From: a virus | Virus genome (UHGV): UHGV-0061377 | Length of the DNA stretch: 44,710 bases | Direction: 5' to 3' (one strand) | Shown: piece by piece, positions 10,766 through 13,700 of the stretch | How positions within the stretch are numbered: position 1 is the stretch's first letter | Layout: each line of letters begins with the position of its first letter | Translations under genes and position numbers: made by a program | The notes under the pieces: model-generated | Seen by the model: the letters and a program-made list of their open reading frames with translations, nothing else | Database searches by the model: none | What the model was told of the DNA's origin: nothing

Positions 10766-13700
10766 ATGACCACTGTGAATAAAAAGTTAAAAAAAACTGC
10801 ATCTGGCGCGATTACATGGTCGGTAATTGTTACCCAGATATTATCTCCAGTTTCTCTTTCTTTGATCCCAGCAAACAGTTTTGCATCATCTGGTAATAAA
10901 GATGTTACGCAAACTTATGCCAGCGATGAGCATGCAAATAAAGTGGCCTCATTTGCAGCAAGTGCAGGTCAGAGCCTGGCGAATAATAATGCAAGTAGTT
11001 TTGCTGTAAATACTTTATCAACTCAGGCGACAAAAGAGGTCGTCGACTGGTTGCAACAATATGGCAATGCGCGCATCAAGCTTAATGTCGATGATTCTTT
11101 TTCCTTGAAGGATTCATCATTCGACTTTTTATATCCATGGCTGGATACTCAGGATTATGTGCTTTTCAGTCAGACATCACTACATCGTACTGATGACCGA
11201 AATCAGACCAATATTGGTTTGGGGATTCGTCATTTCACTCCTGATAACGCAATGTTGGGTGCGAATGTTTTCTATGATTACGATTTAAGTCGCAGTCACT
11301 CTCGTGCAGGTTTTGGGGTTGAGTACTGGAGAGATTATTTCAGGCTTGGTGTAAATACCTATTTTGGTTTGTCTGACTGGAAGAACAGTCGGGACATTGA
11401 TGATTATCTGGAAAGACCCGCAAATGGCTGGGATTTTTCTGCTGAAGGATGGCTACCTGCTTATCCGCAATTAGGGGCATCCATTCAGTTTGAAAAATAT
11501 TATGGTAAAAATGTCGGGTTATTTGGAAGCGATAATCTGCAGGAAAACCCTTACGCAGTTACTGGGGGAATTTCTTATACACCAGTTCCTCTGATTAAGT
11601 TTTCTGCACAGCATAAGCAAGGACAGAGCAACGTTCACGATACAACCTTTGGTGTTGAGTTTAATTATCGCCCGGGCGTTTCCCTTGCTGAACAGCTTAG
11701 CAGTGACAATGTTGCTGTTATGCGAGAAGTCCAGAACCGGCGTTATGATTTTGTTGAACGAAATAACAACATTGTTCTGGAGTACAAGAAGAAGCATGCA
11801 CTGAAAATCAGTTTGCCAGAGTCTGTTCAGGGGGAGGGGGAATCAATCATCCCTGTAACACTGACAATCAACAATGCTAGTGGTGGTATCAAGTCTGTAC
11901 AGTGGAATGATAGTGCATTCACTGCGGCTGGCGGCAAGATCAGTGGAAATGGCACATCATGGCAGATCACTTTACCGGCTTATAAAAGCGAAGGTGTAAA
12001 TTCGTGGAATGTTGGAGCCACAGTACAGGATAACAGAGGCAACGTTTCCAACTATGCCGTGATGAATATTAGCGTTACTGATAGTGGTGTCTCGACGGCT
12101 GATTCGTCTTTTACACTGGATGGAGATTCGTCGCCGACGATCTCTGCTGATAGCCAATCCACTTATCCAATAGTATTAAGCCTGAAAGATAGTAACGGTA
12201 AGGCATTAACCGGACTGGCTGATGACATTGAAATGTCAGTGGAATTTACAGCAGATAGCAATAGTGCTCGACAGCGTGAAACGGTAACTGCTCCGTCATT
12301 AGGCGCGGTAGAGGAAATCTCTGCTGGGGTATATCGCTCTGTTCTGACTGCTGGTTCGCAGGCTGGTACGGTACGTGTAACTGCAAAAGTTCAGGGAAAA
12401 ACCTTTACTCTGAATATTAAGCAGGCAGCCATTACTGATAGTGATGTATCGACAGCTGATTCGTCTTTTACACTGGATGGAGATTCGTCGCCGACGATCT
12501 CTGCTGATAGCCAATCCACTTATCCAATAGTATTAAGCCTGAAAGATAGTAACGGTAAGGCATTAACCGGACTGGCTGATGACATTGAAATGTCAGTGGA
12601 ATTTACAGCAGATAGCAATAGTGCTCGACAGCGTGAAACGGTAACTGCTCCGTCATTAGGCGCGGTAGAGGAAATCTCTGCTGGGGTATATCGCTCTGTT
12701 CTGACTGCTGGTTCGCAGGCTGGTACGGTACGTGTAACTGCAAAAGTTCAGGGAAAAACATTTACTCTCAGTATTAAGCAAACAGCAGCAACAGAACCTG
12801 ATTCTGAGGTCAGTGCTGTTTTAACCGCTGCACCAGCAGAACAGGTAGTTGGTTACAATATCAATCTACAACTGGCAGTGAAGGATTCACAAGGAAATGC
12901 AATCACTGGTGATAACACTCTGAGCTTTTATGCTCTTAACCAGGCAGAAGGAGTCGAGTTTGGGACTGTAACGGAAAAAGACGGTGTCTATAGCGCGACA
13001 GTAACTTCAAAACGAGCTGGTAAGATTACTATCGGTGTTAAATCTGATAGTCATGATTTCTCAGGTGTTAAGAAAGAAATCACCTTTATTGAGGACCGGC
13101 AGCAGGTTACATTCTCTCAGTTTGAAGCCAGCCAAAATAATGCATTGGCTGATGGAAAACAGAGAAATATGGTAACTGTAAGCCTTGCGGACCGTTTCGG
13201 CAATGTTGTTCCTGGTTATGCTGTCACATTGTCTTTACCAGCAGGGATAACTCAAGTTGGTGGTGAACATGCTGTTTCAACTGACGAAAATGGTAATGCT
13301 ATTTTTGCGTTAATAAGCTCCACTCCGGGGTCTTACGTGATTACAGCTCATGCTGGTTCTCAGATGTCTACTGAGTTAACAGTGACCTTTGCATCAAATA
13401 TGACCGGAGCTTCACTGTCACTGACGCCTGAAAGCAGTAGTTTAATTTCCAATATTCCTGCTAATGGTAAGGATGCAGCGGTATTAGATGTGCAGCTGAC
13501 AAATACGAATGCGTCGGTCAATGGGCAAAAGATTCAGCTCATCACCTCATCTGAAGGATTATCTGTACCAACAAATATCGTGACTGATTCAACAGGGCAT
13601 GTTTCTGTTCCGCTTACAACGGTGAAAGCTGGTGAGTACACGGTGACTGCACGGGTGACTGACGGTTCCCATAGCGTGGAATCTGGCAGCGTTAAGTTAA

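Follow-up and report, generated by a model that had tools for sequence, protein, structure and literature searches.

The adhesin gene and its prophage

The window, that is, the whole 44,710-nt stretch of UHGV virus genome UHGV-0061377 analyzed here, is a lambdoid prophage adjoining icd and is 99.93-99.95% identical to the prophage of E. coli A36. An adhesin gene and an alpha/beta hydrolase gene are flanked by replication gene P on one side and by the nin region on the other. The genes and features of the prophage referred to below were as follows.

3428..5192, - strand: exo-bet-gam (Red-like) recombination module (ORFs; annotation of the A36 prophage)
10766..14674, + strand: inverse autotransporter (type Ve) adhesin gene, 1302 aa (ORF, Pfam and PDB matches)
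14686..14706, no strand assigned: G+C-rich hairpin between the adhesin and hydrolase genes (terminator score on both strands)
14711..15754, - strand: alpha/beta hydrolase gene (ORF; annotation in A36, JJ1886 and others)

The hydrolase gene is convergent to the adhesin gene and was found in most variants of the prophage; it was absent from the AST215 and TUM14771 types, where ybcN directly followed the adhesin gene. The GC content of the adhesin/hydrolase cargo was 37-47%, compared with 50-55% in the flanking phage genes. Judged by its position, the terminator-like hairpin and this deviating composition, the adhesin gene is prophage "moron" cargo. No match to the gene was found among the deposited phage genomes in INPHARED; in IMG/VR the adhesin gene was present on seven viral contigs, each containing the internal repeat junction (see below) once. 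The exact adhesin protein was identified as WP_097521062.1 and was present on 12 contigs.

Other features of the prophage were also observed. At 8867-8877 the window is without 458 nt that are present in A36 (9644-10112), where they lie between two 11-nt direct repeats; with them the 3' part of a ydaT-like gene is lost, as is most of the spacer that precedes the gene for O-type replication. Within the O-type replication gene, at 9240-9352, iteron-like tandem repeats with periods of 19, 23 and 43 were found, which are probably the prophage origin. In the lysis region, an iss/bor-type serum-survival lipoprotein gene is located at 19872-20165 (- strand) according to the A36 annotation, so that the prophage has a second cargo gene associated with virulence besides the adhesin gene.

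Domain organization of the adhesin

Outside the repeat, the adhesin gene was divided into the following segments.

10934..11767, + strand: beta-barrel translocation domain, aa 57-334 (Pfam PF11924)
11768..12073, + strand: passenger domain D0, aa 335-436, unrepeated (intimin D00 match)
12788..14344, + strand: five more Ig-like domains, aa 675-1193, unrepeated (Pfam scan per segment)
14345..14671, + strand: C-terminal tip segment, aa 1194-1302 (Pfam scan)

Inspected by eye for a Sec signal peptide, the N-terminus has a basic N-region (KKLKK) followed by a hydrophobic stretch and then ...NSFA/SS. The IAT_beta domain (PF11924) was detected with 338 bits at aa 57-334, N-terminal to the passenger, and comparison of the barrel with the PDB gave invasin 4e1t (E=1e-73) and intimin 4e1s (E=8e-63), with the beta-domains covering aa 97-341. 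D0 matched intimin D00 (6tqd) at E=1e-9 over aa 342-441, and its Big_13 match was weak. Five Big_1 and seven Invasin_D3 stretches were identified in the passenger by Pfam, in agreement with the per-segment scan. In the same Pfam scan, the C-terminal 109 residues, presumed to be the tip, gave no confident family and no C-type lectin match. From this domain order the adhesin is predicted to be a single-chain protein attached to the cell surface. The IAT barrel and the chain of Ig-like domains identify the repeat region as part of the passenger of an inverse autotransporter, so that the duplication does lie inside an adhesin gene, as the earlier note had proposed.

The adhesin was compared with the named E. 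coli inverse autotransporters intimin, FdeC, YeeJ, IatA/YchO, IatB/SinH, IatC and IatD. With the NCBIfam equivalog models for named inverse autotransporters, every score was far below the cutoff (score/cutoff of 394/2400 for IatC_Nterm, 334/1400 for intimin, 318/999 for SinH and 272/508 for YchO). Its database names are generic ("adhesin", "invasin" and "inverse autotransporter beta domain-containing protein"). Goh et al. 2019 (PMC6714894) studied six E. coli inverse autotransporters, among which there was no prophage-borne one, and we found no published description of the adhesin locus, the EC958 genome paper included. The adhesin is an unnamed and uncharacterized member of the intimin/invasin family.

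A 357-nt repeat encoding one Ig-like domain

Two tandem units of 357 nt lie directly behind D0.

12075..12431, + strand: repeat copy 1, a single Ig-like domain of 119 aa (aa 437-555) whose left edge is of the first-copy type
12098..12402, + strand: identical 305-nt core of copy 1 (twin at 12455-12759)
12403..12454, + strand: internal junction, made of the copy 1 right edge and the copy 2 left edge, diagnostic of alleles with at least two copies
12432..12788, + strand: repeat copy 2 (aa 556-674), whose right edge is of the last-copy type

Tandem Repeats Finder reported a repeat at 12075-12780 with a period of 357, 2.0 copies, 98% matches, zero indels and a score of 1370, and a second repeat search of the window paired segments 12075-12374 and 12432-12731 at a spacing of 357. 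When the window was compared with itself base by base at an offset of 357, an exact run of 305 nt was found (12098-12402 = 12455-12759). This run contains both segments that had been noted as identical beforehand, 12101-12402 and 12458-12759. The duplication had also been described as an exact one of 357 bp: two 357-nt units do stand in tandem, but they are exact only over the 305 nt, since the full units 12075-12431 and 12432-12788 differ by 10 mismatches in 357 nt, all near the edges. The left edge has three of these (unit positions 13, 17 and 23) and the right edge has seven (329, 338, 340, 350, 351, 356 and 357). If mismatches were evenly spread, the probability that all 10 fall within the 52 edge positions would be about 4e-9. 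Chance cannot account for an exact direct repeat of 305 nt in a sequence of 44.7 kb. No 20-mer of the repeat unit was found elsewhere in the window.

Both units are in frame within the + strand ORF 10766-14674 and encode 119 aa each (aa 437-555 and 556-674), confirming the two in-frame copies reported from the first inspection. They differ at four residues, giving 96.6% amino acid identity and 97% nucleotide identity. Since each of the other Ig-like domains of the adhesin was only 18-24% identical to the unit in a paralogue alignment, the 96.6% identity of the pair stands out. The minus-strand ORFs that had also drawn attention (11972-12157 and 12299-12514) were present, with their first 20 residues alike and their starts 357 nt apart; as genes they were rejected, being mirror images of the repeat.

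The repeat unit alone scored 41.6 bits with Pfam Invasin_D3 (cutoff 33) and matched FdeC 4e9l, its closest solved relative, by sequence at E=3e-7. An AF2 model of a single unit, built on the paralogous domains of the adhesin, was all-beta with a pLDDT of 75 (moderate confidence), and the best PDB matches of this model in Foldseek were FdeC, InvE and InvD with TM of about 0.56-0.61. By these sequence and model matches, a unit corresponds to a single Ig-like domain together with a linker and represents the second domain of the passenger, counted from the barrel, in line with the original description of the repeat as Ig-like.

Copy number of the repeat in E. coli genomes

The adhesin gene was carried by approximately 560 of 5,426 closed E. 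coli genomes. The copy number was taken from record spans together with systematic samples, and the resulting distribution is approximate. The spans were 1094 nt, 1451 nt, 1671 nt and 2028 nt for one, two, three and four copies, respectively. Three copies were the commonest state (~355 of the ~560 genomes, mostly ST131); one or two copies were found in ~200, the systematic samples containing one-copy and two-copy alleles at 15 to 21, and four copies were found in at least one closed genome, AVS0193. Annotated CDS lengths followed the same series, with 3552 nt for one copy (Ecol_244, TUM14771, UPEC-455U and AZ190), 3909 nt for two copies (A36, AST215, B1172, PSUO2 and an ST131 isolate) and 4266 nt for three copies (JJ1886 and most ST131). 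Proteins of 1302, 1421 and 1540 aa in the databases fitted this picture. ST1193-type alleles had one copy. Alleles at least 99% identical to each other, in genomes that included some labelled ST131, had one, two, three or four copies. The suggestion that the repeat is a substrate for copy-number change is thus strongly supported by closed genomes.

A 91-nt junction query hit 423 closed genomes at one to four places per genome; this query misses the diverged AST215-type junction, so that two-copy alleles are under-counted. The finding of up to four junctions in one genome hints at five repeat copies. Synthetic queries (six copies, four junctions, and a one-copy chimera) were covered to ~100% by one-, two- and three-copy alleles alike. 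Coverage of such queries does not distinguish these alleles, since the search joins pieces covering different parts of the query.

The repeat was also anticipated to be a hazard for assembly, and an example was found in an unrelated assembly. The 357-bp contig CAXORL010000232.1, from a "Moraxella osloensis" assembly, stands alone and equals one period of an internal unit with one mismatch. Collapsed tandem repeats typically leave such contigs, and this one probably comes from E. coli contamination. Some of the "complete" genomes with one or two copies could likewise be collapsed assemblies, because the loss of a middle copy looks alike in the cell and in the assembler. The length of the adhesin gene will be misreported by short-read assemblies.

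Age and concerted evolution of the array

In order to compare copies within and between alleles, all units were cut from 13 alleles, and the unit interior was defined as unit positions 24-290. Copies within one allele had 0-3 interior differences, whereas units of different allele lineages had 12-17. An edge signature (positions 13, 338, 340, 350, 351 and 356) was kept in five of five multi-copy lineages examined; position 13 marks the first copy against later ones, and positions 338, 340, 350, 351 and 356 mark the last copy against earlier ones. As lineages 12-17 interior sites apart have the same junction and edge signature, the duplication predates those lineages. Had a one-copy allele only just been duplicated, its junction could not be unlike both outer edges, which again makes the array older than the lineages. 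The interior that is uniform within a lineage, together with the divergent array edges, indicates concerted evolution, which in the compared sequences would have proceeded by gene conversion or unequal crossover. The earlier claim of a recent domain duplication does not hold: the two copies are near-identical within an allele, and the shared signature is common to diverged lineages.

Contracted alleles could be traced to the arrays of their own lineages. In TUM14771 the left part of the single copy is that of AST215 copy 1 and the right part that of AST215 copy 2, and UPEC-455U combines copies 1 and 2 of B1172 in the same way. Two distinct chimeras of the three-copy array of the ST131 type are seen in the one-copy alleles of AZ190 and Ecol_244, and the two-copy ST131 isolate 42 has JJ1886 copies 1 and 3. 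Because every one-copy allele is an exact chimera of units from the array of its own lineage, these alleles are derived and result from several independent deletions. A change in the other direction was seen in AVS0193, where the identity of copies 2 and 3 indicates a fresh expansion.

The adhesin gene of the window differs from that of A36 at 3 of 3909 nt. Two of these differences, at 12526 and 12693, fall on the only two interior sites that distinguish copy 2 from copy 1 in A36, and one of these A36 variants, G at unit position 95, is shared with the ST131 alleles. From this pattern, the perfect core of the window allele probably arose when copy 2 was overwritten by copy 1 very recently.

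In a scan of the GTDB species representatives for an outgroup, the only matches were the 357-bp orphan contig and a homologue from E. albertii that runs off the end of its contig. The latter, in E. albertii NBRC 107761 (6001-6711), is 80% identical and comprises residues 1-237 before the cut.

Origin of the repeat

The explanation we favor, to which we give a probability of about 0.85, is that the 357-nt repeat is an old, in-frame, variable-number tandem repeat of one Ig domain per unit in the stalk of a prophage-borne adhesin, and that its units have been gained, lost and homogenized. Misaligned homologous pairing between units identical over 305-357 nt would add or remove whole units, giving one to at least four copies, and would also overwrite one unit with another, leaving uniform interiors and keeping differences only at the outer edges of the array. 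Either unequal exchange between sister chromatids or slippage during replication may underlie the mispairing. For E. coli repeats of this size, both RecA-dependent unequal exchange and RecA-independent slippage are known. Each event would mean one Ig-like domain more or fewer near the base of the passenger, and since the length of the array changes only in multiples of 357 (3 x 119), the reading frame is always kept. The window allele would represent a two-copy state whose copy 2 has been converted by copy 1.

A single recent duplication of the Ig domain in the lineage of this strain, with copies too young to have diverged, would account for the exact identity of the 305-nt core and would agree with the existence of one-copy alleles. 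We consider it very improbable, since a fresh junction would reuse the existing edges and the real junction is unlike the outer edges at 10 sites. The junction/edge signature is moreover common to lineages separated by 12-17 interior sites, and the one-copy alleles, as chimeras of the two copies of their own lineage, are derived rather than ancestral. An error in the assembly of the window could also have produced a perfect pair, whether from a single true copy, from the collapse of three or more, or from consensus polishing that equalized two copies. The repeat exceeds short-read length, another assembly yielded the 357-bp orphan contig of one period, and three copies are the commonest state in closed genomes, all of which speak for such an error. 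Yet the two-copy gene is also found in the closed genomes A36 and A20, where it differs by 3 nt, 12 contigs encode precisely the 1302-aa protein, and two-copy alleles occur in several diverged lineages. In addition, the two sites that differ from A36 are 67-82 nt from edge variants and could be phased by ordinary reads, so that an artefact appears very improbable.

The restriction of the mismatches to the unit edges would also be expected if two anciently distinct neighboring domains had been equalized by one gene conversion, with no ongoing copy-number dynamics. This is barely credible given copy numbers of 1, 3 and 4 in near-identical allele backgrounds and the identical internal copies in AVS0193. 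The repeat is a length-variable stalk repeat of a familiar kind and not a one-off recent duplication.

Invasin-type Ig domains are roughly 3.5-4 nm long. We infer that the copy number tunes the reach of the adhesin tip from the cell by roughly 3.5-4 nm per domain. A further proposal, that the array is a fast heritable switch of adhesin length in pandemic ExPEC clones with a rate boosted by derepressed exo/bet/gam, is unlikely in our judgement, although a role of the exo-bet-gam module as an accelerator of repeat recombination is possible. If the proposal were true, the phage that delivers the adhesin would also set how far it reaches.

Comparison with known repeat-containing surface proteins

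Periscope Proteins are surface proteins with domain-sized repeats that exceed 50 aa, are >=80% identical and differ in number among related strains, and intragenic recombination has been proposed as the driver of this variation (Whelan et al. 2021, PMC8201768). A review of the class names inverse autotransporters and the Invasin_D3 fold among them (PMC9704523). By these operational criteria, namely repeat size and identity and strain-to-strain repeat number as read from the sequences, the adhesin fits the class. Like SasG/Aap, Rib/alpha C and Sgo_0707, it has tandem domain-sized repeats with high DNA identity and a strain-variable number. Arrays of Periscope Proteins have up to tens of units, whereas the adhesin has 1 to 4, perhaps 5. 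Unlike the classic members, the adhesin repeats only one of about eight Ig-like domains, and its gene is prophage-borne.

Near-identical tandem Ig-like passenger repeats, strain differences and assembly problems are shared with Yersinia ruckeri YrInv/YrIlm, to judge from the work of Wrobel et al. 2018 as cited in PMC9704523 and PMC6714894. According to the same cited accounts, the YrInv/YrIlm arrays are much longer than that of the adhesin and are chromosomal. FdeC (EaeH, 4e9l), the closest to the unit by sequence and fold, has an IAT barrel followed by an Ig-like chain as in the adhesin, but it is a different gene at a different locus, the adhesin gene being located in a prophage beside icd.

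A natural case in which the stalk of an inverse autotransporter has gained or lost a single Ig-like domain near the membrane is invasin, whose domain D2 is present or absent between Y. pseudotuberculosis and Y. enterocolitica. Unlike the adhesin repeat, this difference is fixed between species and is without high-identity tandem copies.

The locus described here provides a prophage-borne adhesin of the intimin/invasin family that is common in B2 ExPEC, ST131 included, with a domain-sized variable-number repeat that combines concerted evolution with repeated independent contractions. As a further example of the Periscope Protein class it is small and clean, and it leaves the knowledge of that class unchanged. 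Studies of the adhesin, or its use in vaccines, must allow for length alleles, and the repeat could be used as a simple PCR-sized marker within clones.

Interrupted adhesin genes

In several ST131-type genomes the adhesin gene was broken by IS2, by ISEc52 or by a frameshift in the barrel. In the REF1 locus (3003-4172) the gene was interrupted within the array, at the end of the first repeat copy, and in the AVS0193 locus (1492-2446) it was split in the barrel region. Breaks by IS elements and frameshifts in several genomes argue against strong constant selection on the adhesin, and the interrupted gene copies indicate that it is decaying in some lineages.
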